From NCBI GenBank assembly GCA_043228905.1, contig JBHGNT010000018.1:3906001-3970000 (forward strand): a stretch of 64,000 nt of DNA. The letters are read 5' to 3'. The notes under the pieces were generated by a model, which made no database searches, had not been told where the DNA came from, and saw only the letters and a program-made list of their open reading frames with translations. This document shows positions 5,174-53,500 of the stretch, one piece after another. Position numbers and translations under genes: made by a program. Position 1 is the stretch's first letter. Each line of letters starts with the position of its first letter. This stretch comes from Azolla caroliniana. Its lineage: Eukaryota; Plantae; Polypodiophyta.

Positions 5174-8100
5174 TGTGAAATGTCTCAAACTCTCCTACTT
5201 TCTTCCATTACATCTCAACTCTTTTATAGAGTCTCTTAGTACATTCCAAGACACCTTTTATTATCTTGGCACGCTTATATTTACTCCTCTAGTTACCTCT
5301 AACTAACCCCTAACTAAACTAAGGTATAACTCTGAGGGGTTTGACCTTGTGGTTTTACCACACGATCCCACAACTCCCCCTTTCAAAAAACCTATGCATA
5401 TCGGTTGTGCTTGATGGTGCCTCTGATTCATTGTTGTGGGAGCTACATTTGATAAGTTGCCATTACAAATGGCGTCCAGGTTGCTCGTGTTCGATGGCGT
5501 CTCTAGTTCATCCTGCTTGTTGGCTAGGACTGAAGGGCTTTCTGATTTGTCATTGCAGGGGACATCATGGTGAGTTGCTTATTCTTGTGATGCCTGATTT
5601 GTCGTAATATCCATGGAGTGCTTGACATATGGCTTCATCCACATCACATGTGCATAGGTCATCCGCCCATTAGGATCTCAATGGAGGGAATAGGTGTTGG
5701 TCCTCATTGATCGAATGACAATAAAAAGGTTGATCCATCTATGCATCATTGATTCACCGAGTCTCGTCGCCTGATCGGGAAATAGACTAGGACCTTGGCT
5801 CCAGTTGTGTACTCTACCACATGTCAGCCTTTATCATAGCACCACTTTTGTCGGGACTGAGATAGTTGTAGGTTCTTGTGCATGCTCAATCATAAGATAG
5901 GTTGGATCTGTTGCAAGTATAGGCACCAATCCATTGGGTCGGCTCAAGTATTTTTGTTGGGTAGGTCCATATTGATGTCAGGGGGTAAGCGGGGGTCTCC
6001 CCCATATAGTGCTCAAAAAGGGTTGATTCGAGTCGAGGCTTGCATCAAGGTGTTATACACATGTGTGATGAAGGGTAGGATCAAGTCCCACGTTGTCAGT
6101 AATGGGTCGATGAATGCGGTAAGTTGTTGTTTAATCGTCTTGTTCATCTATTCTGTTAATCCATTTGTATGGGGGTGATATGGTGAGGTAAATATCGATT
6201 GAATGCCTAATTGTGTGGCTAATGCTTGCAGTACCTTTTCGCTAGATTACGGTCCTTTATCTGATAGGATGCAAGCTGGGCAGCCATGTGGGAAAACAAT
6301 TCGCTCTATCAGCTTTGTTGCTATGGTGACGGCTTGTGCATCCAGAATTGCGGCGGTTTTGGTTCATCGCGTCAAGTATTCGGAGATGACTAAGGTATAC
6401 TTGTTTCCTGCCTGGGATTCGGGAAAAGGGCCAACGATATCTCATCTATTAACTCAAAGGGTTCAGAAACGGTAATAGTTGGAGTTGGTCATCATTGGAA
6501 TGGGGCGGTTTAATCTCTTGACACGATTGGCATTGTTTGATGTAATCCGCGATCATTGTACGCATTTGTGGCCAATAATATCAGAGACTGATCTTTTTCC
6601 AAAACCATCGGTGATCATGAAAAATTTGCATATATAAATTCTGCAAGCTATGTGGTATGTATATTCGTGGCTCTTTTCCTGTTTGTATAAAGTATAAGAC
6701 ATTGTTTTGTAGTTGGAAATGGGTGTGTGCCTTTTTGCATGATGTTGATTGGATCTCATGGATGATTTGTCGTATTTGCTCATCAACATGTTGTAGGCTG
6801 CTATCTGTGCCATCGTTGTGGGTATTTGGACTAGTGTAGGATTGAATTGAACACATTGTGTTTCCACTCTTGACAGACCATCGGCGATTAGATTTTGACC
6901 TCCTTTTTTATAAGTTAATGTGAACCGATATTCCTGTAAAGCCATTGCCCATCCTAATAGAAGACTTGGTGGGTATGGCTTGTTAATTAGATGAATTAGG
7001 GACTAGTGTTCTGTTTCTACCTTGACGTGGGTGCCATGCAAATAGGGATGGAACTTTGTGAAAGCTCATACGATTGCTAACCATTCATTTTTTGTTGTGG
7101 AGTAATTCTTTTTTGCAGGTGTAAGGGATTGACTTATATAGGCAATCGGCCGCTCTGCTCATGTTGTATCTACTTGTACTAGTACAACTCCCAACCCATC
7201 ATTGGATGCATGTATCTACAAAGGGAAGGGGCATGAGAAATTGGGGTGAGCCAACTGACCTGCTTGGTGTAGTGTGTCTTTCAATTGGATGAAGTTGTTC
7301 TCACATTTAGTTGTCCACTCAAACTTTGAGCCTTTTCGTAATAGGTGTTGTAGGAGTGTTGTCATGGTGGCCATGTTGGGGATGAATCAGAGTGAAAAAG
7401 TCACCATGCCTAAGAAATGCTGCAAGGACTTGACTATGGCTGGTTGGGGAAATTTGGTCACGGCCTCGATTTTCTTTGGGTTCATCTGTAGGCCTTTGGC
7501 AGAAATGATGTAGCCCAAAAACTTTAGTTGGGTGCTACCCCATCTGCATTTCTTCCACTGTAATTTCAGATTGTGTTGTTGTATTCGTTGTAGAACTGCT
7601 TGTAATGCCTGAATGTGCTGTGGCCATGTGGAAGTATGAATTAAAATGTCATCTAGGTATACGAGCATTGTACCGTCAGAGATAAGGTATGCGAATATTG
7701 AATTTGTCATCCTGTAAAACATGTTGCCTGCATCGGATAAGCCAAATGGCATCATGTTGAATTGGAATAGGCCTCTTCGTGTTCTGAAAGTTGTCTTATG
7801 TATGTCTTTTGGGTCCATTGGAATTTGCCAATATCCTGCCGCAAGTTCAATACAGGTGAAGTACGGCAAGCATCCCAAATGGTCCAAGAGATCATCGATT
7901 CACGACAGGGGGTAAAGGTCATGGATGGTGACTTGATTGAGCTTGCGAAAGTCAACACAAAATTTGTATGTGCCGTCATCCTTCTTGACCATGTGTGGCT
8001 CTGATACCCAATCACTATGTGAGGGTGAGATGATCCCCATTTGAAGCATCTCATTCACTGCCTGGTCAATGCGTGCATGATCTAAAGAGGAACGTCGCCT

Positions 8101-10211
8101 TGTTGTGGTCCAAATGGGTGTTCTAATGCTTGTGTTGATGACATGTTGGTCTGGGAATGAGAATGTAGTGGGCTTGTCGAATGAGTTGATTAGCTCGAGG
8201 TATTTAACTAAAACATTTTGCACATCATTTAGTTGAACCTCCTTGCTCAATGTTACCTGGGCATTGCTGATTTGGTGGGCACGTTTGCTTGTGAACAGGG
8301 GAATTGACCTTGGTTGCGGTAATGTGAGGTGATGTGTATCGAAATCAAGTTGGGCCATGCTCTACATGAACCAATCACATCCAAGTGTGAGTGGGAACAA
8401 TTGATGCACACGTATGTAAAAGGTGTGTGTGATTGTGGTTGGGCCAAGCTTGAGTGTGTAGACGGTTGTGGTGTTGGACTGATATAGGCATTGGTGATTG
8501 CCGAACAACACCTTGATGGAGGGGGGGGGGGGGGGGGGCTTTGGAGGTTGCAAGATTGAGGCGATTGACCAAATCTTGGCTGATGGAAGATATGCTACTA
8601 CCGGAATCGAAGAGAACTTCATGTGGGCTATGGAGGATTGTGGCGATGGATGTGCGCACCGAAGAACTTGAGGATGTGGATGCTTGTATATGTGAGAGAA
8701 CAGTTTTTTGACAAGTTGGCCCAATAACTGTTGTTAGCCAACTATACTTGCACATTTTGCTTCTGTGTTTGAGCCATTTCCGACAGTGTTTCTTCACGTG
8801 CCCATAGTTATTGCAGAAAAAACATTTAGGTCTTCCTTGTGCATCACGCGTTGGCAAAGTCCTTCTTGCTTGTAGACTTGTAGTTAAGCATTTTGGACAT
8901 CGACTTCCATTGGTGTGGTGTTGCTATTGTATTGCTTCTCGGAAGTGTCATTGGATGACCAGGTCATTTGGAGCTCTGTTTGTGTTGCTACTTCAATGCA
9001 TTGTGCAATGAGGATGGCTTCTTGAAATGTATTGGGGCCTTGATCGCACACTTGACGATATATATCTGGGTGTAGCCGTGGCTATAAGAAGAATAGCTTC
9101 ATCAATTCTGGCATTGTCGGATTTGTACGGGTAAGTAATTGACATTGACATTCTTGAAATGTATTGGGGCCTTGATCGCGCACTTGACGATATATATCTG
9201 GGTGTAGCCGTGGCTATAAGAAGAATAGCTTCATCAATTCTGGCATTGTCGGATTTGTACGGGTAAGTAATTGACATTGTAATCGTATTGCAAATTGTGT
9301 TACTGGCTCATGTTGTTGTTTGATTGTCTCTAGTTGTTGTAGCATCGTCTAAGTTGAGTCATGGTGAGCAAAATTCCTGATCATGAGGGATTTAAGTATC
9401 AACCAATTGTTCTTGGCCTCCTCTTTTTGTTGAATGAACCATGTTGTTGCGATACCCCCCAATAACGTTCTCATTTCTAGTGCTTTCCGGGTTTTGGGCC
9501 ATTGATGATAGCTTTCCACCATTTCAAAATGATCGAGCCAAGAAAGGATGTCCTCATACGGTAGACCAGAGAAGGATTTAGGTTGTACTCGTGGATCTAG
9601 GCGATTAGCGTGCCTATCTGTTTGCGAAGAGAAAAAAGATAGCATGTCTTGATTAGTCATATTTGATTGTATTGCGATGTTAGATACAACTTGTGTTAGT
9701 TGATCTATTTGGAAAGTTTGACGGTTTTCTTGGTGTTGTTGTAGGAATTTTGGATTCATGTCGGTGAATTCTATTACGTTGTTGTTATGTATTGGGGATG
9801 CCATATGATGTATGTTGGTTTCGACTTGTTGTGCCTGCATCTTGTTGTGTTGGGGTATCGTTGCGACTTCTTCTTCTTACTGTGGTGGTGTCTGATCTGT
9901 TAGAGTAGCATCTTCTTTTGTTGCGGCTCTTTCTTGATGTGGTGTCTAAGTGATGCCTGTCTTCTTCACCAAAGTTTGTGAAATGCCTCAAACTCTCCTC
10001 CTTTCTTCCATTACATCTCAACTCTTTTATAGAGTCTCTTTGTGCCTTCCAAGATACCTTTTATTATCTTAGCACGCTTATAGTTACTCCTCTAGTTACC
10101 TCTAACTAACCCCTAACTAAACTAAGGTATAACTCCCCTAACCCTAGTAACTTATAGTTACTTGGGTTAGGTGAGGGGTTTGGCCCTGTGGTTTTACCAC
10201 ACGGTCCCATA
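5174..10211 (-). mobile_element. Degenerate Ty3/gypsy LTR retrotransposon with short LTRs (5174-5372 and 9977-10211)
   Basis: Direct repeats TGTGAAATG...CCCACA/CCCATA; PPT (ACTCCCCCTTT on +) next to the left LTR; gag (FSGLPYEDILSWLDHFE), zinc knuckle CFFCNNYGHVKKHC, protease LFDSGS, RT (FCVDFRKLN, MPFGL, VYLDDIL), RNase H and integrase fragments in gypsy order; many stops/frameshifts; ATAT on both flanks. Confidence 0.92.
9019..9277. repeat. 132-bp tandem duplication inside gypsy gag
   Basis: TTCTTGAAATGTATTGG recurs at 9019 and 9151; duplicated peptide MSITYPYKSDNARIDEAILL... in the ORF track. Confidence 0.9.
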
Positions 10212-13570: not shown

Positions 13571-29710
<16,140 letters not shown>

Positions 29711-33079: not shown

Positions 33080-36000
33080 TGTTGAGAATCAAGCTCAACA
33101 AAATGCAACGTGTGAACACACCTTTGAGAATCTATGTGCACTCAAAGGTCAAGAGTCATACCACTCTCTACACATTAAACTATGTGTCATAGAATCATAT
33201 TCTATGACACATGACTAATGAGTTACATATTCCTCATGACAATGAGTCTTCACATTCCCCAAGAGAGAGAGTGGTTTTTGTTGTAAAGTTAATGAAGAGA
33301 GAGGGTGACTATATATAAAGCACCCTCCTCACACTTCATGCTAAGTCAGTTGTGACTCCTTGTAATGCTATATTTTTGTATTTCATATTCTCCTTATGAA
33401 TATATACATCTTCTTCTTCTTGAGTATTCTATTTTCCATTCTATCTATCCATCTTGTGTCGTCTCTTCTCTTCTCTATTTCCTCTCACACGTACACATAA
33501 CACATAACACATATCTCTTCCGCTACACAAGAATCATATCGGATTCTTTACATGGTATCAAAGCGATTTGGTAGCTCGATCTAGCCCACTCGCCTCATCG
33601 TGATCGTGTGTTGTGCTCTACACCGACGTTCAAGAAGAACCGACTCATCGCTATCGTAGTACCACTACATAGCTCGTGTTCGAGAGAGAAGGAAAAGAAG
33701 AAAGGAAGCTTAATCGACAATGAATACTCAAATGGGGAGCTCTCTCCCTAGCGAGAAGTTCGACTGAAACAACTTCGCATCTTGGGAGTACAAGATGCAC
33801 CAATACCTTGTCGGCCAAGGCTATTGGGGTTACATCAAGGGAGCACAAGAAAACTAACCCGACCCGGAAGACGCCGATTATGCAACGTGGGAGCAAGCGG
33901 CAAGCCGAGTGATGTATTGCTTCGCAGCATGTGTTCACGACCACATGCTCGGGTACATTCGAGAAGCCGAGACGCCGAAGGAAGTGTGGGAGAATCTACG
34001 AAAGATTTTCGGCGCCAACACTACCGCGAAAAAGCTTCAACTCTGCTAAGAGTTGAACAACATCCAACAAAGGGATATGTCCATCACAAGCTACACCTTG
34101 AAGTTCAAGGAGCTTTGCGACTCGCTTGGATCGATAAGCGTCAATGTGGACGATGATGAGATGGTGCAAATATGCCTCGGCGGCCTTGCACCACGATTCG
34201 GCGCGATGCGGACCATCGTACTAGCACGGGAGAATCCACCCTCCTTCTTCGATCTTCAATCTATGTTGTTGGTCGAAGAAAACCATGTTCGAATAAGGAG
34301 CAACGCCTCAGAAGGCCACATGCTCTACACGCATTCGGACGGAGGAAGAGGACGCGGTCATGCAAGAAGAGGCCGATTCGGTCAAGGACGAGGCCCGACT
34401 TACGAAAACAACTTGCATTTCGGCATAAAGACGGAAGCCATCGAGGAACCTTCGGAAGAAGGGGGTGCTTCCATTATGGTCTGAACCGACAAAGCTCGAT
34501 CGAATGCGGATATTGCGGAAAAATCGGTCTCCACGAAGAAGAATGCCGTAAGAAGATACGCGAGTTGGCTTCCACTAGTTAAAAACTCACCAATTACGTC
34601 GTCGACTCCGAGTACGACGATTACGGTGGATTATTCGTAATGAGACATAGAGAGAATTCTATGTCGACCTCTACTTCTACTAGTGCCTCCGGTCCGGAAG
34701 ACGTATGGTTCGTCGATTCTGGTGCCTTGAACCATATGATGTCGCATCAAGAATGGTTCCGAGAACTTCGAGAGCCGGACCGACCCGGCTATGTCGAAAC
34801 CGAAGACGACACTATGCACCCGATTCGGTACATCGGCAATGTTCCGATCAAAAAAGAAGGTAAGCAAACTTACATTAAAAATGTCTTGTATGTACCAACT
34901 ATCATGAAGAATTTGGTCTCCATCGGCCAAATTGTAGAGCAAGGAATGCAAGTTCGATTTAATCAAGGTGGTTTCTTCATCGAAAAAGAGGGCCAACTCA
35001 TTGCGTGCGGACGAAGAGAGAGCCGAATGTTCATTCTCGACTCACACGAGATGAAATCAGCAATGTTCGCAAAAGGCACGAAAGCCGAGTCTGACATAGA
35101 GTTATGGCACAAGCGGATTGGCCATATCAACCTTCAAAAGCTCAAGGCGATGCAATCGAAAGGAGTCGTCATCGGACTCCCGACCTTCAAAGAGAGAGAG
35201 AGAGATTGAAGGCGTATGTGCGGCTTGCCAATTTGGCACGCAACATCAGCATCCAGTTCCAAAGGAGAGGAATGTAATCAAAGGCGTACTCAACGTAATT
35301 CATTCCGATGTATGGGGACCGGCTCAAACGGCGACATTCGGCGGATGCCGATACTACGTGACCTTTATCAACGACTTCTCTAGGCACACTTGGATCTACC
35401 CGATGCGGCAAAAGAGCGAAGTGTTAGAACACTTCCAAAAATTCAAGAGTGGAGTCGAAAAAGCTACGAGTCGAATATTTCTCGGATGAGTTTACGACGT
35501 ATCTTCGAAAAGAAGGGATTCGACGAGAATTTTCGTGTCGATATACGCCACAACAGAATGGAGTAGTTGAATGCAAGAATCGACACATCCTCGAAATGGT
35601 ACGTGTTATGCTTAACGAAAAGCACATGCCGAAATCGTATTGGGTGGAAACAACTAACACAACCGTCTATATCATGAATCGATGTACGACATCCGGTGTG
35701 CATGAACTCATGTTGTACGAGAAGTTTTTCGGAAAGAAGCTAGATCTATCACATGTTTGGATATTCAGCTCCATTGCATATGTGCACATCCCCGACAAAA
35801 AGCGACAAAAGCTCGACCCGAAGTCGGAGAAATGTATCCTCATAGGATACTCACTAGAGCAAAAGGGGTACAAGTGCTATAACCCCTCAACTCGAAAATC
35901 TCGAGTAAATCGAGACGTTGTTTTTTACGAGTCCGTATCTTGGTACGCACCAGAGACAACTTCGACTTCGATTCCGCTCGACTCGGATTCCGCCGAAATA

Positions 36001-38512
36001 GAGATAGAAGCCGAAGATCGGTTCACGCACATGTTCAAAGAAAGCCCGATTATGACAAGGCTTAGTGGGCCACAAGAGCCCTCGAGCGATCAAAGTACAT
36101 CTCGGCCAAGTCCGAAGCTGGACAAAGGGAAGGAAAAAATGCTGGATTATGAAGATGATCACTTTAATGACAACAAATCGACTCACTCCCTTGATAGTGA
36201 GTTCGAAGGCCTTGAGATCCGAACAAATGGAGCGGAGAAAGCCGTAGTATCCACAAATGAGAAGCTCTGCCGATCCACCTATGAAAAGAACCCCGTAAGC
36301 CAATTCGGCTACAACGATTATATGGCGTACCATTACACTTTTATGCTGAAGGTAGCGATAGTACGGGAGCCGGAAACGTTTTCCGAAGCCGCGACGGACC
36401 CCAGATGGGTTGAAGCGATGAATGAGGAGATGCAAGCACTCTCCAAGAACGAGACATGGGATCTCGTTCCCCACTCACCGCACAAGAAGGCAATTGGCTA
36501 TAGATGGATCTACAAGGTGAAGTATAATGCCGACAGCTCCGTAAACCATTACAAAGCTCGACTCGTAGCGAAAGGATACGCTCAAACGCATGGAGTCGAC
36601 TATGAAGAGACATTTGCCCCCGTGGCAAAGATGACAACAATGCGGACCGTAATTGCACTCGCAGCGGCGAAAGGGTGGCACCTCCACCAGATGGACATCA
36701 AGAACGCTTTCCTCCAAGGCGAATTAGAAGAGGAGGTGTACATGCTACAACCTCTCGGCTTCGAATTGCGCATTCATCCGAAAGTCGAATGCTGACTCAA
36801 GAAGTCACTCTACAGTCTCAAGCAAGCATTGTGTGCTTGGCATTCGAAGATTAGACAATATCTTCATCAAATCGGCTTTCGAATGTCGAAATCTGACAAC
36901 TCCCTCTACGTACAACACGACTCTAGAAGCTTAATTGTCATCATCCTCTACGTGGATGATCTGGTTATTGGAGGTGAGCATTTAATCGACATCAACAAGG
37001 TGAAGTCCCTCCTCTCCAACAAATTCGAGATGGCTGACATGAAGGAACTCTTCCTAGGCATCGAGGTAATTCGGATTCCGGCCAACATTATGATCTCCCA
37101 ACGACACTACATCCTCAACTTGTTATACAAGTTTGGGATGACTCAGTTTAAATCCGTGGCAACCCCTCTCGATCAAAACCTCAAACTAGATGTTGACTCT
37201 AGCACAGACGAGTGCGAGCCGACCCAATATCATCAATTGATCGAGAGCCTCATCTATCTCACGATCACTCGACTCGACCTTAGCTATCCGGTCGAACTCC
37301 TTAGCCAATTCATGCAAACTCTCGTGAGATATCCATTTCGATTGCGCTAAGCGAGTATTACAATACGTGAGCGGCACAATGGATTACGGCGTTCTCTACA
37401 CATCGGCCCCACCAATACGACTCGAAGGGTACACAGACGCGGATTGGGCAGGCTACAAAGCCGATCAATGATCAACCTCTGGTTTTGTCTTCTCCCTTGG
37501 TAGCGGAGCAATTTCGTGGAGTAGCAAGAAGCAACCAACCGTAGCTCTTTCGAGTACGGAGGCCGAATATTGGGGCACAGCCATAGCTGCATGTGAAGTT
37601 GTATGGCTCAAGAGGATTTTGAAGGATCTGGGCGTCCCCATCAAGGATTCGACGCCCATTTACTGCGACAACATGAGCAGTATATACCTGGCTCCGAACC
37701 CGGTGTTCCACGCACGCACAAAGCATATCGAAGTGCACTATCACTTCATTCGAGAGTGCGTACAGGCTGGAGATGTCGACCTTCAACACATCAACACGAA
37801 TCTTCAAACGGCCGACATCTTCACCAAAGCCTTAGGAGCCGACAAGCTTCAGCAATTCATGTCAGACCTTGGATTGACGATCCCTGATTTGCCAAGCTTG
37901 AGGGGGAGTACAAGCGAGAACCGGATACGTTCTGAACTGGGTACAAGCCGAGGCGGATACCGGAGATCGTCTGAACCGGATACCAGCCAAAGCGGGCATC
38001 AATCAAAAGGAACCGACCCGAGTTGAGCTTGAGGGGGCATGTTGAGAATCAAGCTCAACATAGTGCAACGTGTGAACACACCTTTGAGAATCTATGTGCA
38101 CTCAAAGGTCAAGAGTCATACCACTCTCTACACATTAAACTATGTGTCATAGAATCATATTCTACAACACATAACTAATGAGTTACATATTCCCCATGAC
38201 TATGAGGGGACTATGAATCTTCACATTCCCCAAGAGAGAGAGTGGTTGTTGTTGTAAAGTTAATGAAGAGAGAGGGTGACTATATATAAAGCACCCTCCT
38301 CACACTTCATACTAAGTCAATTGTGACTCCTTGTAATGCTACATTTTTGTATTTCATATTCTCCTTGTGAATATATATATTCTTCTTCTTGAGTATTCAT
38401 TCTATCTATCCATCTTGTGTCTTCTCTTCTCTTCTCTATTTCCTCTCACACATACACATAACACATAACACATAGCTCTTCCGCTACACAAGAATCATAC
38501 CCGATTCTTTAA
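33080..38512 (+). mobile_element. Nested Ty1/copia element; LTRs 33080-33552 and 38040-38512, TSD CTCAA
   Basis: TGTTGAGAATC LTR pair; PBS TGGTATCAAAGC at 33553; PPT GAGGGGGCA; CTCAA at 33075-33079 and 38513-38517; full copia domain order with frameshifts/stops (WFVDSGA, YTPQQNG, YVDD, HARTKHIEVHYHFIRE, ADIFTK). Confidence 0.94.
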
Positions 38513-39909: not shown

Positions 39910-42149
39910 ACGTTGACTACTTCAAGAGGATGGCCGATTTATCAAATGGATGTCAAATCAGCATTTCTGAATGGGCATCTCAAGGAGGAGGTATACGTGA
40001 CACAACCACCAGTGTTTGAGATGTTGAATTCAGAAAACAAAGTTTACAAGCTAAAGAAGGCGTTGTATGGTCTAAAGCAAGCACCAAGAGTTTGGAACAA
40101 GAGGATAGACAGCTTCTACGATCAATCGACTTTAAGCAATGTGCTTTGGATGCAAGTATGTATGTCAAAATGAAGGACAGGAAACAAGTCATCATCGTCA
40201 TTTACGTGGATGATCTAGTACTTACTAGTGACCATGAAAAGTGTATTGGTCAAACACAAGAGTGTTTGAAAACTGAGCTTGAAATGACAGACTTGGGGAT
40301 TCTACACTACTTCCTTGGAATTGAGGTTTGGCAAACCTCGGTTGGCATCTTCATGTCACAAAGAAAGTATGCAACAGAGATCTTGAAGACCTTTGGGATG
40401 ATTGACAACAAGTCAAAGTCGACTCCAATGGAGTCAAACTGCACACTATCCCAAGAAGACTTGTCACCAATGGTTGACATAAGGAAGTATAGACAACTAG
40501 TAGGAAGTCTAATTTTCTTATTCAACACTGGGCCAGATATTTGTTTTGCAATCATTGTGGTGAGTCGATTCAACAACAAGCCGAAGGAGACTCATTGGAA
40601 AGTTGCACTACGTGTATTAAAGTACATTGTGGATACTTTAAATTACAGAATCTTCTACAAGCCAACGATTGACGAACTTAGTGGGTATTGCGACTCCGAC
40701 TGGCCTAGAGAAGTGATTCTAGAAAATCAATTTCTGGATATTGTTTTTCAATAGCTTCTGGAGCTGTTTCATGGAGTAGTAAAAACAACCAACAGTGACA
40801 TTATCTTCAACGGAGGCAGAATACAAAGTAGCATGCATAGCAACATGCAAGACAATCAAAGTTGCATGTCCATTGCCAATAACCCCATATTTCATGCACA
40901 TACTAAACACATAGAGGTTTAGTATCACTATGTGCGGGAGCTAATAAATGATGAGATAAGTAGTATCTAGCACTAGCCTGTATCTAGGGAGTTGGGTCAT
41001 ATTAAATGACAAGTCGGTTGATAGAAAAGGAATATCTCCATTATTATCAACTGACTTGCACATTTAATGTTATACTCAGACCAAACATAGAATATAATCC
41101 ACTTTCTTACACAATGGTTGGATTGATCATCAGTCCCTACTAATTTTGTAGTGAGCTAGTCTAGATCCCATCTAAGCGCTAAGGTGTGAGCGCATGGGTG
41201 AACTACCATTGTGAGCTACTCTCATATGGAATAGAAGTTTTGTTTTCATATATTCATCTCTGTGGTTGTAACTCTATATACCTATCTAATCGATTCTCAA
41301 TATTTCTAACAATTTGTACTTGCGTTGATGGCCTCCAAGATTGAGATTCTTGAATGCTAGTAGCTCACACAACAACAAGGAAGATAATGGACAAAGCATA
41401 GACACATGCAAATGTATGATGTTTCTTGATCACTAGAGAATCACGTTGCCATAATATACATTACCTTCTAAATGCATTAATTATCATGTGATTTGTACCA
41501 TATCACCCACATTCTTTGTTGTCAATGTTTTTTTGCCATTTCCATCCCATGCCAACTCCAAAATCTTTTGCTACCAATGGTTTTGTATTTAATTAATGCT
41601 ATTCCTTTGTTAATTGCATGTTATTTATTTTGTGCCATATCAAATGGATGACCATATTTTATGTCACTTAAAATTCCTTTCCACGTTAAAGTTGCATCAA
41701 AGTGGACAACAATATTTCATATGACTCTACCATGTAAATGTATTCTTTTGTTTGCTAGTTGGATATAAGGTTTAATATAAACAAGTAAGACAACAAACAA
41801 TTGATATTTTGGTGGCACATATTGGCTTCAATTGGCTTTGAAAACCACATATTTTGTGGTCGACAATTGTGCACCACATTAACATGAATTTTGTTCTATT
41901 AATCGAACTCAATTGGACTAGATTATTTAGAACCAATTATTGTTGACCATTATGAATATGAAAATTGTCCATGTTATGGTAGACAATAACATTTTGCGAT
42001 CATCAAGGAGAAAGTTTCTAACCCGACACAAAGTTGATGATAACAAAATTTATGAAATTTTTATGATAAGTATGATAACAAAATTTATGATGAGTATGAT
42101 GAATAAATTTATGATAATTTATAATAAGTATGATGATTAATATCAATAA

Positions 42150-43849: not shown

Positions 43850-44590
43850 TTAGAGCGAAATCTAGATTAGATGCCATAAACACTTCATCCTCGAAAGGAA
43901 CCTTTCACATTGCTAACAGTCTGCTTTACCATAATGGAAATGTTTGCATCCCTAATTTGCTTGAGGTAAAAAAGAAAATTCTTTTTGAATGTCATAACTC
44001 ACCGTGACGAGGGAATCCTAAGAATATTGTACACGTGTTATTATCTCTACTCAAATTTTTTGGCCTCAAATGCATCCTAATGTTGAAGATTATGCGATTA
44101 AATGTCATCAATGTCAATTTAGTAAGGCTCAACAACTTAAGGCTACATGTCTTTTACATCCTTCAGATATTCCTAATAACAAGTCGGAAAGTATATTAAT
44201 GGATTTCATTGTTAGTTACCACGCACTAAAAAAAGGTCATTATTCTATTTGGGTGGTTGTTAATAGATTAACAAAAATGGCCAGATTCATTCCAACGAAA
44301 TCCACAGTGACAACTCAAGACTTGGCTTATCAAATTGTCAATGAGCTATTCGATTCAACGGGTTACCGATGGATATAGTGAGTGACAGAGATACTAAGTT
44401 TACCAATGATTTTTGGATGCAAGTCTTTAAGAAACTAGAATCTACGTTGAGAATGAGTCTCATAGATCACCCTCAGCCTCATGGACAAACAAAAGGAGTT
44501 AATAAGATCATTGAGGATATGCTTCGAGGATATGTGGGTAGGAAGCCTGCTAAATAAATGGGAACACTTTCTTCCTATTTTGGAGTTTAC
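43850..44590 (+). mobile_element. Ty3/gypsy integrase fragment
   Basis: VEDYAIKCHQCQ, ESILMDFIV, IWVVVNRLTKMARFIP, IVSDRDTKF, HPQPHGQT, W...LPILEF; frameshifted and cut off at the microsatellite. Confidence 0.85.
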
Positions 44591-44632
44591 ATACACACAC
44601 ACACACATACATACATACATACATACATACAT

Positions 44633-44668
<36 letters not shown>

Positions 44669-45037
44669 GTACTCATGCACACACACACATACATTCACAT
44701 ACATACATACACACACACACATACATTCACATACATACATATACACACACACATACATATATACATACAATGATACATACATAACATTCACACATACATA
44801 CATATATACATACATACATAACATTCACACATACATACATGCACACACACGTACACACACATGTACATACATACATATATACATACATACATACACATGT
44901 ACATACATACATACATACACACACACACATACATACATATATACATACATACATAACATTCACACATACATACACACACATACATACATGCACACACATG
45001 TACATACATACATACACACATACATACATACATTCAC

Positions 45038-45070
<33 letters not shown>

Positions 45071-45182
45071 TACATACGAGTGTGAGTGAGTGAGTGAGTG
45101 TGTATATGTATGTGTGTATACGTACATGCATAGTACATATGTATGTATGTATGTATGTATGTATAGTAATAACATCATCGTC

Positions 45183-45212
<30 letters not shown>
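44588..45212. repeat. Long compound (CA)n/(CATA)n microsatellite, switching to (TG/TATG)n, then (CT)n
   Basis: Directly visible; explains the HT/YI/CV-rich spurious ORFs. Confidence 0.95.
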
Positions 45213-45213
<1 letters not shown>

Positions 45214-45730
45214 ACGGCTCTTTCTGCCGTTGTCGCCGCCGTCTACTGCCGTCGCCGCCGCCGTCGTCTGCAGCCGCCATCGTTGCCTACTGTTGCCTCC
45301 GTTTTCTGCCGCTGACGTCTGCAGACTGTCGCCGTCGCCGTCATCTGCAACTACTGTCTGCTGCCGCCGTCGTCTGCAACTGTTGTCTGCTGCCGTCGTC
45401 GTCTGCAACCGCTGTCAGCCGCCGTCTGTTGCCGCTGCCGACTGTCGCCGTCCGCCGTCGTCTGACGTTTAACGTTTGCCGCCGTCGCCGTCGTCGTCGG
45501 TTCTTGGCCATCGTCGTCACCCGTCGCTGTTGTGGGTAATCGGTGCCCTTGTCGCCGTCGTTGTTGTCATCGTTGTCGACCGTCGCTATCACCTACACCT
45601 CTTACGGCGTCGTGACGAGAGAGTACAAATGTGCTTCTACACTTGTACCTAGCGCGCAAGACATCGATGCTCGGCTAAGTTTTTTCTGCCCTTTTTGACT
45701 TTTTCTTTCGTTTATTCTTTGAATTACAAC

Positions 45731-46522
45731 ATGACTTCTCGACGAAACCATAAGGAAACACACGACGAAATGATAAGTAAGGAAGAATTTTTAGATGTCC
45801 TTAACCGGTTAGTAAAATTTGAAAAATGGGCGAAAGAAATTGAAGCTGAAAAACAAAAAGATAAGGAAGAAAAAGAACTACTTTTTGCGGAAATAGCGAA
45901 ACTTAAGGTAGACAATGTGAACCTCCGAAAACAAGTTAAGGACCTCGAGATATCTAGGGAAGATGGTGAAATATCTTCCCTAGAGGATATTAAGGACGAG
46001 ATAAAAAAGGTTAAAGAAGAGGTTAAAAGTGATATGGAATTAGCTAAAACTGGGTGGGTTGATGTAGTAAAACGTAATATTAAAAAAGAACTAAAGGATG
46101 AAAACATTGTAAACACTACCCTCGAGGAAGAAAAAATGCGTCAAGCTCGACGCCTAAATGTACGAGTTACTAGGCTCAAGGAAGGGGCATCTCCGGATGA
46201 AGATGCACAAACATTAGGGAAAATGTTAGGGTACGAAGCCCTACCAATCACTAAAACCTGGAGGGTAGGGCGTGACACAACTAGGAAAAGAGCTTTAGTC
46301 CTTCAGTTTAAGGACTCAGAATCTAGAATCGCCTTTTTTAAAAAGAGACCAATTCTTCGAGGCTTGGGCGGGGAGCCTATCTACCTCGATGAAGACTTGA
46401 CCAAGATGCAAATTGAGCATCGTAAAACTTGTATGCCGCGAGTCATACAAGCTCGTAAAGAGGGGCATCGTGCTTTCTACCGGGACGGACGTGTCATAAT
46501 AAATGATCGTGCCGCCAATTGA
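45731..46522 (+). CDS. LINE ORF1 protein (coiled coil plus RRM/CTD-like region)
   Basis: ATG at 45731; E/K-rich heptads then RRLNVRV...RVG...LVLQF...IYLDEDLT...R...G..AFYRDGRVIIN, the usual LINE ORF1 pattern. Confidence 0.8.
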   Translation: MTSRRNHKETHDEMISKEEFLDVLNRLVKFEKWAKEIEAEKQKDKEEKELLFAEIAKLKVDNVNLRKQVKDLEISREDGEISSLEDIKDEIKKVKEEVKSDMELAKTGWVDVVKRNIKKELKDENIVNTTLEEEKMRQARRLNVRVTRLKEGASPDEDAQTLGKMLGYEALPITKTWRVGRDTTRKRALVLQFKDSESRIAFFKKRPILRGLGGEPIYLDEDLTKMQIEHRKTCMPRVIQARKEGHRAFYRDGRVIINDRAAN

Positions 46523-49500
46523 CGGCGTGTGGCCCATGTGACAGATAATAAACTTAGGATCACTTTATGGAACTGTAACGGCGCACTTTGGACACATCCT
46601 GGCCGTCTAGAGGAGATTTTGAAAGTATCTGATATACTTTTTGTAGTAGAAACACATCAAAGCCCAAATCGAGGACTGCCACGAGTTGACGGTTTTCGTT
46701 GGGAATCTGTCTTTAGACAAACCTCACGTCGACACACTACTAGAGGGTCTGGGGGGGTTGCGATATTATTTCGGAAAGAGATAAATAATAGGATAGAAAT
46801 ACTAAAGTCAGACCCAGAAGCCCGTTTTATGTGGGTGAAAGTCCTCACTAGTAAGGATCAGGTGATATTTATCGCAGTTTGTTACTTCCCCCCGAAAGGG
46901 TCCCGCTACAATATGGCTGGAGAGGCGAGTATAGTTGATGAAGGAACGCCACATGGGCCTTCTCCATACGAACCTTTGTCGGATGACATAATCCGATATT
47001 CTTCTCAAGGGGAAGTCTTCCTGGTAGGAGATTTCAATGCGAGAACCCAGTCCCGACAATGCACAATATTTCAGATGGATAGAAACCTAGAAATGGTGAA
47101 TGTCGACCCTTTAGCCTTAGGCATAACACGTACATCGAAGGATCAAGGTGCGGATGCCACAAGCTTTGGCCATCATCTGCTTGAACTTGGAAGCCGACAC
47201 CAGATGATCATATATAATGGCTTAGCCAAGTGGCCGGGCTCGGAAGAGCTCACATGTTTCCCACATGGAGGAGGGGAAAGCACCGTTGATTATCTAATAG
47301 GACGCCCTGAAGCTACCCACATGGTTAGCTCCTTCCGGGTGGCCCCATGCCCCATTGGGGCAGACCATACCTTCCTATACTTTGAGCTAAAATGTGACAC
47401 CTCCCACACCACCAACTCTAGTAAACCAGCCCATCACACTATAATACATTTCACGCATGAGCTCGCGGACATCTACTCTCGACATGTTCAAGCCCATCTT
47501 TCCTCGTTTGATTCTTCCTTGCCTTTAGAGAACCTCACTACAGAACTCACACACATCCTTCACTCAGCCGCCACTAGTAGCTTCCCATACACGAAAGACT
47601 CCAATCATAGTAGAATAGGGTCTATGCCACAAAACAAGTGGTATGACGAGGATTGTAGAGAGTTGTATAGACAACTTAAAGTATCGCGACTCAGTGGTAC
47701 TATCTCCTTAGTACAGGCCCGCAAAGAGATGCGCAAGATGACACGTCGTAAAAGACGAGCTTGGGAAGCATCTCAATATTGGGAACTCTACCATATGCTC
47801 ATGAGTAGGGATTGTGCCCTTGCATGGAAGAGACTACGGGAACCGAGACCACAAACACCCATCGAGGATCCAAATATTTGGCACACATATACCGAGAGAC
47901 TCTACCATGTCCCGAACCAACCACCTATTCCAATGCCCTCCACACCTCGACCTACCATGGGGACACTTTTCACGACCTCTAGGGTCACGAAGGTCATAAA
48001 AAAATTACAACATAGGAAATCCATGGACCACACAGGATTGCGAGCCGAGCACATCATATATGCTCGAGAGTGCCTAGCTCCCCTTCTCACTCTAATCTTC
48101 AACCGCGCCCTCGCCGAGGGTTTTCCACCACAATGGGCCATGAACACTGTGGCCCCTATACATAAAGGAGGGGACCCAATGGACCCAAATACATATAGGA
48201 CCATTATGATAGGTCATACGCTTGCTAAACTATATGGTGCAGTAATGGAAGCGGAGCTCAGTGATTATATGGAAACATTAAGTCTTCGAGCACCTGAGCA
48301 GGCTGGCTTTAGACGAGCCTTCTCCACTATTGACCACATCTTCACACTTAGGTGCTTAATTGACCAAACAAAGGCTCGTAAGAAGAAACTATATTGTTGC
48401 TTTGTGGACTTTCGCAAAGCCTTTGATACAGTTCCTAGGGAGAGGTTGTTTGATAGACTTAAGAGCTTGGAGATACCAAATGACATGATTTGGGCCATTT
48501 ATGCCCTATATGAGCAAGTCTGTGGGCGCGTAAGATGCCCAGGTGGCCTATCCGATTGTTTCACTAGCACCATTGGTGTAAAACAGGGTTGCCCCCTATC
48601 ACCGACTCTTTTTGGGATCTACATTGATGAGATCACTGATTTTATTGCTCGTAAGGGAGGCATAGGAGTGGCTATTGGGGATACGCAAGTTAGTCTCTTA
48701 CTCTACGCAGACGACATTGTCTTGCTCTCGGAGTCGGAACACGACCTACAAAAGCATCTTAATGCCCTAGATGACTTTTGTACACAACGAGGACTGGTAG
48801 TGAATCTAGCGAAAACTAAAGTCCTTATCTTTCATACATCGTCCAGAGTTAGGAGTAAATGTCACCTCACCCTCTCTCATAAACTAGTTGAGGTGGTGGG
48901 ATCTTATGTATACTTGGGAGTCACTTTTAGTGCTCGCTCAGGTAAATTCTCGATGACCCAGGCAGCCAAAGATAGGCTAACGAGAGGATATGCATCCCTC
49001 TCACTCTTAGAGAGACAATGCCACCAAGCATACTTTCAAGAGCCACGGACTAAGGGATGGCTTTTCGACTCATTAGTGACCCCGTCCCTCATGTATGCAT
49101 CAGTAGTATGGGCTCCAGGTCTACCATCTTTCATGTGGACGCAATTGGAGAGACCTTTAGTGGTGATGTTATCACGTCAACTCCGAAGCAAATCGACAGT
49201 ACCACATGACATTATTAGAGCGGAGTTTAGCCTACCCCCGATGTTAGTAGAAGCACTCTTTCAAGTGGTAGCTTTTATTCATCGGATACATAGTCAACCA
49301 CAAGATAGGATATCCCATCGAGCCTTTGAGGCATCCCGATCCTCACATGTGTCTGGAGACACTAACTCTTGGTATAGCATTGTGGTGAGTTGGTTATTTG
49401 CAAATGGCATAGACATTAATAACCTACCTCCCCTTAAGTACAACCATGGGACTGATCAAACTTTAATCTCTCGTGAAGATCGTAATAAAGTGATACGCCA

Positions 49501-50272
49501 AGAAATATGGCAAATCTACACTCGATACAAATGGATCACCCCACGAGAGCCACTCCCATCTAAAATGGTGTACTATAAGGAACACTTCTTGCACTTCTCT
49601 AAGTTAGGGTTTATTACACGACCAAGATACCTAGATACTTTCTTATCAAATGCACTAAGGGTGGCCATTGGACAACTTAGGATATCATCTCACCAACTTG
49701 AGATTGAGAATGGTCGAGCTAATAGAGTCCCTAGAGAGGAAAGGCTATGTAGGTTATGCCACATAGAGATAGAGGATGAGTATCACTTCACATGCAAGTG
49801 CCCAACTTATGCCGAGATACGGGCGGAATACCAAGACATACTAGGACCCTCTCCCACCCTCTCCAAACTATTAGATACCCCGAGTGTAAAGAGACTAGGT
49901 AGGTATATCTTAGAGCTAAAACAACATAGGGAGGATAAATTACAAAGTGTTAATCATAACCCTTTTACTACTCATCAACATGTACCTAGTGTAATTTTTC
50001 AGGAACATGGGGAGACGATGAATGTGGATACACTTATGCCGCTCGGCCTCTCCCTTGAGGAAGCAGAAATACAAAGAGCAACCAAACGTCCTCGGATGTT
50101 GGGCTTCAACACAAGTCAACGTGGAGTAGAAAAGATTAAGAAGATAAGGGAACGTGAGCTACGTCGACTCGAAGCTATGGTTGGGGTACCTCTTACATGG
50201 GGACCACGGGCCACATCCACATGGCAACCCTTTGACGCCCCGCTTCTCTTCGAGAGACTTGGATGGAAATGA
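46523..50272 (+). CDS. LINE ORF2: AP endonuclease, reverse transcriptase and C-terminal Cys/His domain; no AUG start
   Basis: WNCNG, VETH, GGVA, GDFNAR, STVDY, ADH (APE); YRTI, QAGFR, FVDFRKAFDTV, GVKQGCPLSPTLF, LLYADD, YVYLG (RT); SSHQLEIENGR...RLCRLC..IEDEYHF..C. Confidence 0.95.
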   Translation, partial: RRVAHVTDNKLRITLWNCNGALWTHPGRLEEILKVSDILFVVETHQSPNRGLPRVDGFRWESVFRQTSRRHTTRGSGGVAILFRKEINNRIEILKSDPEARFMWVKVLTSKDQVIFIAVCYFPPKGSRYNMAGEASIVDEGTPHGPSPYEPLSDDIIRYSSQGEVFLVGDFNARTQSRQCTIFQMDRNLEMVNVDPLALGITRTSKDQGADATSFGHHLLELGSRHQMIIYNGLAKWPGSEELTCFPHGGGESTVDYLIGRPEATHMVSSFRVAPCPIGADHTFLYFELKCDTSHTTNSSKPAHHTIIHFTHELADIYSRHVQAHLSSFDSSLPLENLTTELTHILHSAATSSFPYTKDSNHSRIGSMPQNKWYDEDCRELYRQLKVSRLSGTISLVQARKEMRKMTRRKRRAWEASQYWELYHMLMSRDCALAWKRLREPRPQTPIEDPNIWHTYTERLYHVPNQPPIPMPSTPRPTMGTLFTTSRVTKVIKKLQHRKSMDHTGLRAEHIIYARECLAPLLTLIFNRALAEGFPPQWAMNTVAPIHKGGDPMDPNTYRTIMIGHTLAKLYGAVMEAELSDYMETLSLRAPEQAGFRRAFSTIDHIFTLRCLIDQTKARKKKLYCCFVDFRKAFDTVPRERLFDRLKSLEIPNDMIWAIYALYEQVCGRVRCPGGLSDCFTSTIGVKQGCPLSPTLFGIYIDEITDFIARKGGIGVAIGDTQVSLLLYADDIVLLSESEHDLQKHLNALDDFCTQRGLVVNLAKTKVLIFHTSSRVRSKCHLTLSHKLVEVVGSYVYLGVTFSARSGKFSMTQAAKDRLTRGYASLSLLERQCHQAYFQEPRTKGWLFDSLVTPSLMYASVVWAPGLPSFMWTQLERPLVVMLSRQLRSKSTVPHDIIRAEFSLPPMLVEALFQVVAFIHRIHSQPQDRISHRAFEASRSSHVSGDTNSWYSIVVSWLFANGIDINNLPPLKYNHGTDQTLISREDRNKVIRQEIWQIYTRYKWITPREPLPSKMVYYKEHFLHFSKLGFITRPRYLDTFLSNALRVAIGQLRISSHQLEIENGRANRVPREERLCRLCHIEIEDEYHFTCKCPTYAEIRAEYQDILGPSPTLSKLLDTPSVKRLGRYILELKQHREDKLQSVNHNPFTTHQHVPSVIFQEHGETMNVDTLMPLGLSLEEAEIQRATKRPRMLGFNTSQRGVEKIKKIRERELRRLEAMVGVPLTWGPRATSTWQPFDAPLLFERLGWK

Positions 50273-50554
50273 AATTAGGCCTAGTATAGAATCATTCTCA
50301 TTGTAGAACATGTTTTTTATATAGAACATGTTTGTTGTTTTCTTAGAACTATTTAGCTTAAACTCTATTTTATCTTATTTTTATTTTTACTTTCGATGAA
50401 TGGGTAAATATCCCATTTTTGTTGTACACCATTTGTCTCATGGGCCAATTTTGGCCTTAGAAGACGTTAATATATCTTTCTTTCTTTCTGCTCAAAATAC
50501 AAAACAAAAACAAAACAAATAAAGAGAATACAGTGAGTGAAGTAAGTCTGCTTC

Positions 50555-50584
<30 letters not shown>
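50555..50584. repeat. (GTCT)n microsatellite in the presumed 5' UTR of the HD gene
   Basis: Directly visible. Confidence 0.9.
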
Positions 50585-50585
<1 letters not shown>

Positions 50586-50599
50586 GCTGTCAGTCCGTC

Positions 50600-53500
50600 A
50601 TGGCTGCTAGCAGCCGTGCTGTTTCTCTGCTCTCCTCCTCCTCCTCTTCTTCTTCTGCCTCCTCTCCCTCTTCTTCTTTCTCCTCCCTCCTTTCTCCATC
50701 ACTATCCTCCTCCTCTTCATCCTGTCCCCCTCTTCCTACTACCTCTTCTTCGTTTTCGTCTGCTTCTTCTTCTTCTTCTTCGACTTCAGCTAAAGCTTGC
50801 CTTGATTCCGTTCCTCCTTCTCAGTCTTCCTTCCCGTTCAGGAACGGAAAGGGAAACTCCAACGGGAGCGGGCCGCGTCAGAGACACGGAGATCTTCCGA
50901 TCCCTGCCATGGCATCATCTGATGCTGCGCATCTCTCCAGTGGCCTTGCTGCACCGACTTCTGCTTCTTCCGCCATTGATTTCCTCATGCTTTGCCAGAG
51001 TTTAAAGGTACGCTTTCTTATGTATTCTTCTAGGAAGCGGATGACTCGCATCATCTAGGAAACGGATAGGTTATTGCCATCTTTCTTCCAAGAAACAATG
51101 AATTCTTCCAGGTAAAGGATCGATCACATCTTCTAGGGACGGGTAGGTTATTATTATCATTCCTCCACGAAATGGACGGATTATTATCACTTCTAGGAAA
51201 TGGGATTGATTATATTTATCTAAAAAACGAATCCATTACATCCATCTATAGCAAACGGATTCATCTACCAGGTTTCTGCTAAATGCAACTGGTACATCTT
51301 TCTAGAGGAAAAAGATCAAATCTTGTTGATGTCCAGTCCGATGGTAAAGTTGTAAGGTATGAGTTACTCTTTCAACTGTGATGAAATGAGAATTTTATGC
51401 AATTAAAAGATCACCGAATAATTTTGTTTAGCAACGAGATCACTTACATCTATATAGAGCAAAAGAACAATATTTGTTGAATATTTCATGAAAGTATTCG
51501 ATCAATCCAATGACAATGTGATAAATAGCAGTTAAGATTTCATCTCTCATGAATTGATCATTAATAATTTTCTGTAGCATATTTGCAACGACTTTATCAA
51601 TGTACAGCAGAAATCAGGCGTCCATGGAAACTGTTGTAATGAGTTATGTCTACAGAAGCAGTAAAAAAAGGACCTAATGTCTTCTTGGTGAATCAACAAT
51701 TTTATGACGTACATTGGACTGAGATGTCTGAAACTGTAGTATGCTTGCATACGAACTTTGCTTAAATTAACGATGATGGAAACTAATCATTTAGAAGATA
51801 GGAAAAGGAGCGGTGCAAAAACTACAGCCAATATGTCTGTTGAAGAGTAGCACGGTACAGAATCCATGTTTTGGACTTGTAGTGCGTGCCTATGTTAAAT
51901 CGTAATATATGCAGCTATATAAGGCAACTGATCAAGTTTGTTAACATTGTTAATAAGGAAGCCTTCACCATGGTCACAACGTCATGGATTTTAAAAGAAC
52001 ATAACTGTTTTGGATTCATCCTCAAACAAAGCTGTGCACATTGCTCCATGAATCCTAAGAACAAGCTCAGTTGTATGCAGAGCACTGCATGATTTATTTA
52101 CGAACTTGTCAAGTGTATTGACCTGGTTTTTTATTATATAATCTCATTTGAAAGGGAAAAACCTCAAGAATACTCGCATCCATCTAAATCTGGTTTACAA
52201 TCAGATAAGAGAAGTGATTACGGTCTTTAGCTTTTCATCCATTCTCGTGACATTAAATGATTGGTCTGGAAGAGAGGTAACCATGGTCCTTAGTTTGTTA
52301 TCTAAGCAATTGCATGATTGCACGCTTTTAGCTGTACCAATTCATCTGAATCAAAAAACATAAACGTACCCACGTGTCATCTATGTCTGCTGGTATTTGG
52401 CTTATCATCCATTCACATGCCAAGAGAAAGCAAATTCAACACCATTGCTTCAATATGACTCAGTTCACATTCTCTCCAATCTGGGATGGGGCATTGGGGG
52501 CATAGGTGATGAGAATCATCAGCTATGCATATTTTGTCTTGAACAAGTTTAGAAGTTAAGATTTTCACACTTCGATATGATGCATTGCTTTTGGCCACAT
52601 TTGAGATTGCTTTCCACACATTGTCGATGTAATCCACTCCCAACACACATTCTAGTCACATTCACGATGTGCATCTCAATTGTAGCGTTCATTCGTAAAA
52701 TTCTTTTCTGAGACACTACATAATATTTTTGGTCCTATGTCATATTTGACCACCAAGAATGAAAGTAAAAACTATCTATCTATTTATCTCCATCTTGGAT
52801 TTGCTTGCATTGGAGTTCATTAATGGCAAAAGTTTTAGTCCAACTACTCAATTTCAGACCTTCTCTGTAAAAATGATTAAGTTCTGGTCCTATATGTCAT
52901 AATTGACCTCTGAGAATGACAGCAAAAACTATCTAACTATTTATCTCCATCTTGGATTTGCTTGCGTTGGAGTTCATTGAAGGCAAAAGTTTTAGTCCAA
53001 CTACTCGATTTCACACCGTCTATGTAAAAATGATTAAGTTCTGGTTCTATATGTCATATTTGACCTCCGAGAATGATAGTAAAAACTATCTATCTATTTA
53101 TCTCCATCTTGGATCTGCTTGTGTTGTAGTTCTTTTGAGGTCAGGATTTATAGTGTAGATAATAAAACTCTTTCCTACCATATATTTAGCTATATTGATT
53201 TATTTCGGTCTATAATACCTCGTTTGTTCTCATACACCATGTTAGCATATTAAAATCTCTCTCTCTCGATGGTAGCGCTAAAAGGATGCACAAGGCACCC
53301 AAAATACATGTTCCATCAGAGGTCGAAGAGGGGAAAGATGACATCTTATGTCATTTGATTACACAAGATCTCAATTGTATGAGAGATGATGTAGAAAGAG
53401 TTTTAAGAGAGTAAATGCAAAAGGAGATAGAGAAACAGAAAATAGAGTTGAATGCCTCTTTCAAGATGGAGTTATGAGAAGCCACACAAAACGACATCAC

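Follow-up and report, generated by a model that had tools for sequence, protein, structure and literature searches.

How a retrotransposon obtains the product of its second open reading frame (ORF) when a stop codon in the same frame ends the first is the question raised by a 64-kb stretch of the Azolla caroliniana genome (contig JBHGNT010000018.1; the whole stretch is called the window, and its coordinates are used throughout). The window contains an intact long interspersed nuclear element (LINE) on the plus strand, from about 45212 to 50489. Its ORF1 (45731-46522, plus strand, 263 aa, ATG at 45731) ends with a TGA at 46520-46522, placed in the context UGA-CGG (46520-46525, plus strand), which is a type II readthrough context. 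It is followed in frame by the 1249 open codons of ORF2 (46523-50272, plus strand), in line with the roughly 1250 codons of the initial annotation. These encode a 10-codon linker, an APE endonuclease, a reverse transcriptase (RT) and a CCHC-type motif. Judging from the sequences of the element and its relatives, ORF2 is probably made as a minor ORF1-ORF2 fusion by readthrough of this stop, which would be stimulated by a duplex formed between the region just past the stop and the tail of the element. The likely stimulator, a long-range pairing with the 3′ end, was absent from the initial annotation.

The stop codon and its surroundings across the family

Relatives of the element were drawn from public metagenome contigs and unitigs, where a scan over 49 of 64 parts returned at least 49 loci (locus counts are among the matches listed); scans of viral contigs and of genome contigs found no relative. 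Seven of the 49 loci (L008, L013, L017, L018, L022, L041 and L047) had no usable junction and were left out, leaving 42 junction loci. The loci form five families: F1, to which the window copy belongs, F2, F5, and the distant F3 and F4, with an ORF2 identity of about 25-35%. The stop was chosen by homology in decayed copies that carry an earlier one (L028-L030, L040, L045 and L046), and nine junction loci have a second stop, mostly CAG to TAG, before the WN motif of the endonuclease. Named homologs come from Adiantum nelumboides and Ceratopteris richardii, and the set of ORF1 homologs comprises 54 sequences of 144-461 aa with 42-99% identity.

The initial annotation had named a private CGA>TGA mutation as something that would refute readthrough; the in-frame stop is not private to the window copy. 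ORF1 ends at the same alignment column in 45 of the 54 homologs, the other nine being cut short or chimeric ahead of the C-terminal motif, and a stop is present in all 42 junction loci. The WN motif lies in the ORF1 frame in 38 of these, down to about 30% identity; the exceptions are L012, L021 and L043, shifted by small indels, and L011, which is truncated. The spacer between stop and WN measures 36, 45 or 60 nt, each a multiple of three. Because both the stop column and the frame are kept, the one-frame arrangement exceeds chance, and a private nonsense mutation in a single-ORF element is ruled out on the same grounds. Three Adiantum gene models are longer than the usual ORF1; the one inspected, P0056, is a chimera in which ORF1 ends at the usual column. 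The junction is spanned by four of 150 listed representative proteins, three of which have tryptophan at the stop column; these reflect either TGG mutants or calls under another code, and they are counted in favour of readthrough. In a comparison with metagenome runs, none of the 40 entries listed, of 172, fell in 46511-46545. Two contigs from a run presumed to be RNA span the junction with no splicing and are not used as evidence; the variants listed for that run are 46526 C>T and 46527 G>A alone, and known variants nearer the ends are absent too, so the blank at 46520-46525 says little.

The identity of the stop goes with that of the following base. Of the 36 distinct junctions, 18 have TGA, with C as the next base in 14 (CGG in 12), and 18 have TAG or TAA, with G next in 16; TAG-C and TAA-C occur in none. 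The junctions are therefore mostly UGA-C(GG) or UAG/UAA-G(GR), the contexts of viral readthrough types II and III, defined respectively by UGA-CGG/CUA and UAG-G (PMC3159437). The conserved in-frame UGA that is a hallmark of type II is present, and the initial annotation was right to recognise the viral context in UGA-CGG. A G occupies position +9 in 41 of the 42 loci; a stop-CGx-xxx-xxG motif and stimulatory stems 7-12 nt past the stop are described for plant viruses (PMC3159437). Two F2 junctions, L027 and L048, read TGA-GAG and TGA-GAA, through decay or as a third context; UGA-G is known from an enamovirus (PMC3159437). The best trees need two changes between UGA-C and UAR-G, so that two independent switches of stop context are favoured rather than established.

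The nucleotides that follow the stop are also constrained. Over codons +1 to +9, one of 60 comparable pairs differs synonymously, against 2746 of 7470 (37%) overall, the lowest value of 1156 windows, in a test of five F1 copies (the window copy, L001, L004, L005 and L006) whose pairs are non-independent and of which L005 and L006 carry some stops. The synonymous-site constraint that the initial annotation had envisaged downstream of the stop is thus strong. It acts on the RNA, since the residues encoded here form an unstructured linker: in the structure model, ORF2 residues 1-10 are unstructured and the first strand spans aa 11-17.

Complementarity between the stop region and the 3′ end

Eight nucleotides past the stop begins the 5′ arm of a predicted long-range duplex (46530-46546, plus strand; core GGCCCATGTGAC at 46531-46542). 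Its 3′ arm (50431-50447, plus strand) forms 16 of 17 pairs with it, one of them G-U, with one U-U mismatch, and ends 16 nt upstream of the conserved GACGTTAA motif and the tail, so that the arms lie 3.9 kb apart. The 5′ arm contains a 12-nt motif, GRCC-NNN-GDGAC, which starts at +9 in F1, F2 and F5 and at +10 in F3 and F4 and is therefore kept in two codon phases; in all families the arm is spaced 7-9 nt from the stop. Each family with a known 3′ end has its own complement at the same site: GACCTCTGAGAC with GTCTTATAGGTC in F2, GGGCCAGAG with CTCTGGCCC in F3 (second copy in L038), and GGGACCAGAGAG-type arms with CTYTYTGGTCCC in F4. Across the four families, four of the 12 core columns (2, 5, 6 and 7) change on both arms.

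Both ends could be compared in nine elements, after L029 and L030 had been dropped as duplicates of L028; L005, L037, L045 and L046 span over 3.3 kb and gave no 3′ end by blastn. In the window copy, the duplex between +7 to +24 and the last 45 nt reaches -26.5 kcal/mol, a value matched by none of 300 shuffles and none of 255 windows of the element body. At most three of 300 shuffles of the last 45 nt did as well in six of the nine elements (none for the window copy, L004 and L026, one for L028 and L044, three for L042), and the terminal site is better than every body window in five of nine. F1 arms favour F1 ends (-22.8, against -13.6, -15.6 and -9.8 for the others), as F4 arms favour F4 ends (-20.4 against -13.8, -16.0 and -18.2). 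For most of 13 ends, minimum free energy folds predict a terminal hairpin that takes in some of the 3′ arm. The local hairpin predicted in the window copy (50442-50457, plus strand) overlaps that arm in part and cannot form at the same time as the long-range duplex.

A variable loop of the endonuclease contains a second, weaker complement of the 5′ arm, about 420 nt further along (46948-46959, plus strand). This complement is found in the window's family F1 only (nine of nine F1 copies checked, none of four F2/F5 copies), with a compensatory A-U in L006, and possibly represents an alternative conformation.

The initial annotation had sought the stimulator closer to the stop, in a local pairing of 46521-46540 with 46593-46607. 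The complementarity itself is present in the window copy. The junction region, for its part, folds no better than shuffles (z +0.35), so that the type II hallmark of a stem-loop within about 100-200 nt is lacking here. Over 13 sequences, 79.7% of the cells of the local stem are paired, as high a value being reached by 90 of 500 shuffles; pairs 3-87 and 17-78 are broken in eight and nine of the 13, and the alifold consensus (-4.85 kcal/mol) contains no compensatory pair. The shuffle folds and the missing covariation do not support this local stem-loop as a readthrough stimulator.

Routes to the ORF2 protein

From the shared frame, the conserved stop and its context, the nucleotide constraint and the complementarity with its compensatory changes, we infer every step of the following mechanism. 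Most ribosomes would terminate at the TGA and release the ORF1 protein. On a full-length RNA, the 3′ arm, within the last 60 bases, would pair with the 5′ arm at +8 to +24, and the duplex would present a helix at the mRNA entry channel while the stop occupies the A site. A near-cognate tRNA could then decode the stop, yielding a fusion with a predicted length of 1513 aa in the window copy. The elongating ribosome would melt the duplex, whereupon the released 3′ end could fold into its local hairpin, the presumed recognition site for the new enzyme in cis. In this way the RNA would be checked for integrity and passed from translation to reverse transcription. What the initial annotation said of readthrough is strengthened by the family-wide stop, its context and the synonymous constraint, and loses the local stem and the argument that no usable AUG exists.

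Several observations weigh against readthrough promoted by the stop-to-tail duplex. Four TGA junctions read TGA-G or TGA-T, the largest distant family is mostly UAA, the least leaky stop, and a single UGA-C origin is not rejected (p-AU, approximately unbiased test, 0.29). The register used for covariation was picked by best pairing, and the nine pairs amount to four independent families. Same-copy pairing is weak in three of the nine elements (9, 13 and 42 of 300 shuffles doing as well for L032, L033 and L040), the specificity of F2 arms is marginal (-14.8 against -14.6), and F3 arms pair equally well with F4 ends. With competing local folds allowed, the gain from joining junction and tail is no more than -6.8 to -9.8 kcal/mol, which ranks third among 115 windows; because this gain is modest, the case for the duplex rests on conservation and covariation and not on energy. 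Finally, 22 of the 42 loci have an in-frame AUG three residues before WN (13/14 in F1, 6/6 in F2, 0/3 in F5, 0/4 in F3 and 3/15 in F4), among them almost every member of the wider family to which the window copy belongs, and a start at codon 13 would cost just two residues of the first strand in the model.

This AUG is the mainstay of the alternative that survives best, which we nonetheless regard as unlikely. ORF2 would be made separately, ribosomes that have terminated starting again at the codon-13 AUG or, in copies that lack it, at a near-cognate GUG or AUC; the duplex would help to hold or position these ribosomes, much as a structure past the stop does in SART1. In F1 the AUG has an A at -3, and precedents exist, since SART1 needs structure past its overlapping stop and start and L1 also reinitiates (PMC5972666). 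In the window copy, codon 13 (46559-46561, plus strand) is ATC, where most copies of the family have ATG: of the 17010 depth units at 46561 in run X1, 16340 (96%) carry G, which is the majority base in X5, X9 and X17 as well. The first in-frame ATG of the window copy is codon 103 (46829), past the WNCNG, ETH and GGVA motifs; the initial annotation's remark that ORF2 has no early AUG is accurate for this copy and fails as a general argument, given the 22 loci above. The missing early AUG is a property of the window copy's subfamily, for the ATC form also turns up elsewhere: a contig of 158 nt that matches 46516-46673 exactly has a depth of 617.6 (depth not being copy number), the other seven listed X1 contigs having depths of 19.6-77.9. 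What speaks against reinitiation is that the AUG is missing from this amplified subfamily and from 19 of 22 TAG/TAA loci, and that the residue in the codon-13 column is M, I, V or L, which is what a buried strand position would show. Nor does reinitiation need a frame kept over three spacer lengths or a stop whose identity is tied to the +4 base. The initial annotation had singled out a conserved AUG at 46529 as something that would tell against readthrough; codon 3, at this position, varies among GTG, ATG, GCG, CCG and GGG in relatives, which rules out a conserved start there.

It is less probable still that local context alone allows readthrough and that the duplex serves ribonucleoprotein assembly or the priming of reverse transcription, for instance by sequestering the 3′ end until ORF2 has been translated, with no effect on readthrough. 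Besides the modest net folding gain, such a role would suit the presence of the 3′ arm in a predicted terminal hairpin, given that stringent LINEs use hairpins of this sort for recognition (PMC3747384). The 5′ arm, however, lies 7-9 nt past the stop in all families and in two codon phases, the spacing of a stimulator acting at ribosome entry, and a role in packaging gives no reason for a fixed distance. Removal of the stop from the RNA by splicing or U-to-C editing is very improbable: an AG at 46543-46544 and the organellar U-to-C editing of ferns could be invoked for it, yet this AG is not kept in L005, four runs gave no joint backed by more than one contig, and such RNAs would be copied back as stop-free elements, whereas all 42 junction loci keep the stop.

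Readthrough stimulated by the stop-to-tail duplex may have a wider bearing. We lean slightly towards the proposition that a deep LINE lineage makes its RT only as a readthrough fusion, licensed by a duplex of kilobase scale that involves the 3′ recognition hairpin and would check template completeness and enforce cis-preference, the stop, the +4 base and both arms co-evolving across families.

The element, its neighbours and known systems

The element has the features of an APE-type retrotransposon of the kind lacking long terminal repeats (non-LTR): APE (PF03372, aa 16-277) and RT (PF00078, aa 546-800) domains in ORF2, an ORF1 fold resembling that of the L1 ORF1 protein (ORF1p), and a simple-repeat 3′ tail. 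The structure model of ORF1 shows a coiled coil, an RRM-like domain and a C-terminal domain (mean predicted local distance difference test score 76, predicted template modelling score 0.41). All ten top Foldseek matches to it are human L1 ORF1p (best E 1e-4); ORF1 has no Pfam match over the cut-off, and a sequence search of the PDB gave coiled-coil matches only. The nearest solved proteins to ORF2 are R2 and L1 ORF2p, and its translation ends with a C-x2-C-x8-H-x4-C motif (49748-49801, plus strand). Upstream of ORF1 lies a probable 5′ untranslated region (UTR) rich in GCC/GTC/CTG triplet repeats (45212-45730, plus strand), where the alignment with L001-L004 starts, and the sequence has a (CT)n tract at the 5′ boundary (45184-45212, plus strand). 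The 3′ end consists of the conserved motif and a (TTTC)n tail (50463-50489, plus strand). By eye, the flanks show no clear target-site duplication, and both ends sit in CT-rich repeats. L002 and L003 likewise start right after a (CT)n tract, and the tail of L004 runs into one; CT microsatellites are a possible target preference of the LINE.

Other relics of such elements occur in the window. An older, decayed F2-type LINE (18235-20436 and 24789-24923, minus strand; 43% identity to ORF2) is split by a Ty1/copia element at about 20645-24500 and retains a variant of the 3′ arm and hairpin at its 3′ end. Another F2-type 3′ end, at about 17255-17295 (minus strand), carries GTCTTATAGGCC, which is fully complementary, with one G-U, to the GGCCTATGAGAC arm of L015. 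A decayed ORF1 C-terminus (27595-27300, minus strand) terminates with TAG-GGA (27425-27420), a remnant that shows the other of the two stop contexts. Directly upstream of the LINE is a (CA)/(CATA)/(TG) microsatellite complex of about 570 nt (44590-45165). On the other side, a probable host gene (50580-51010, plus strand) has a serine-rich, transit-peptide-like start and an ATG about 90 nt past the LINE tail; it has no Pfam match, its exon end presumably resembles plant HD-domain proteins, and the insertion may affect its promoter. Broken LTR-retrotransposon remnants lie at 7387-9876 (minus strand, RVT_1 at 7390-7899) and at 34583-38026 and 40020-40754 (plus strand, both with RVT_2).

By architecture, we take RTE-X (RTEX) to be the likely clade of the fern LINE; the RT trees took in only unnamed relatives. 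RTEX ORF2 has a C-terminal CCHC motif. Some RTEX ORF1s are esterases, whereas that of the fern LINE is L1-like. RTE-X has been reported in Ceratopteris and Marchantia. The long ORF1, the APE-RT ORF2 and the tail of microsatellite rather than poly-A (for algal RTEX tails, see PMC3747384, Table 3) are shared with this clade and are not specific to it.

The closest likeness is with the tombusvirus carnation Italian ringspot virus (CIRV), whose readthrough depends on a 3.5-kb pairing between the proximal and distal readthrough elements, with 3′ hairpins that exclude one another modulating that pairing (PMC3234231; PMC5893793). In a short dual-luciferase setting the CIRV pairing did not work (PMC3234231). 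In both systems, an in-frame stop precedes the polymerase, the partner lies at the 3′ end of the RNA, and quality control and cis-preference are proposed (PMC3234231); the partner of CIRV sits inside a hairpin with a mutually exclusive fold, and such a hairpin is predicted for the LINE; complementarity of this tombusvirid type, with compensatory change, is found in four LINE families. Unlike CIRV, the LINE is a nuclear retrotransposon known here from sequence. Its 5′ arm is a run of 9-17 nt placed 7-9 nt past the stop, in contrast to the 6-7 nt bulge of a large local stem-loop in CIRV (PMC3234231), and no conserved local stem-loop that could hold such a bulge was found in the LINE.

With the type II readthrough of alphaviruses and tobra-, peclu-, furo- and pomoviruses, the LINE has in common UGA-CGG, the +9 G, an 8-nt spacer, a stem (predicted in the LINE) of at least 12 pairs and synonymous constraint; its 7-9 nt spacing matches the stimulators of alphaviruses, tobravirus and murine leukaemia virus (PMC3159437). 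The arms of type II viruses are about 100-155 nt apart (PMC3159437). In the LINE families the distance is 3.3-3.9 kb, and the 3′ arm belongs to the 3′ UTR.

Like human L1 and silkworm SART1, the fern element is a bicistronic APE-RT LINE with an L1-like ORF1p fold; it differs from both in its junction, as L1 (63-nt spacer) and SART1 (overlapping stop and start) use termination-reinitiation (PMC5972666). Readthrough of the ORF1 stop has been suggested from consensus sequences for Group 3 non-LTR elements of Paramecium tetraurelia, a ciliate-specific clade for which the available text names no context, structure, long-range pairing or test (PMC5405496). Our literature search, whose scope lay outside subscription journals and Repbase reports, found no long-range readthrough signal in a retrotransposon, and none is described in the available parts of PMC5009743 or PMC13517186. 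Readthrough alone has been proposed already, for the Paramecium LINEs; the new element would be the stop-to-tail pairing in a retrotransposon.

How LINEs make so little ORF2 protein, and how this protein finds its own RNA, are long-standing questions that have been answered for few elements, L1 and SART1, both by reinitiation. Annotations should take ORF2 of such elements to begin at the ORF1 stop and not at the first ATG. The natural compensatory variants, two short arms and two alternative stop contexts provide ready material for testing the proposed pairing. If it is true, a readthrough fusion gated by 3′-end pairing would be a third route to ORF2 and would extend the tombusvirid mechanism to nuclear retrotransposons. 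Translation would then be tied to the completeness of the template, the copying enzyme being made from full-length RNA only.

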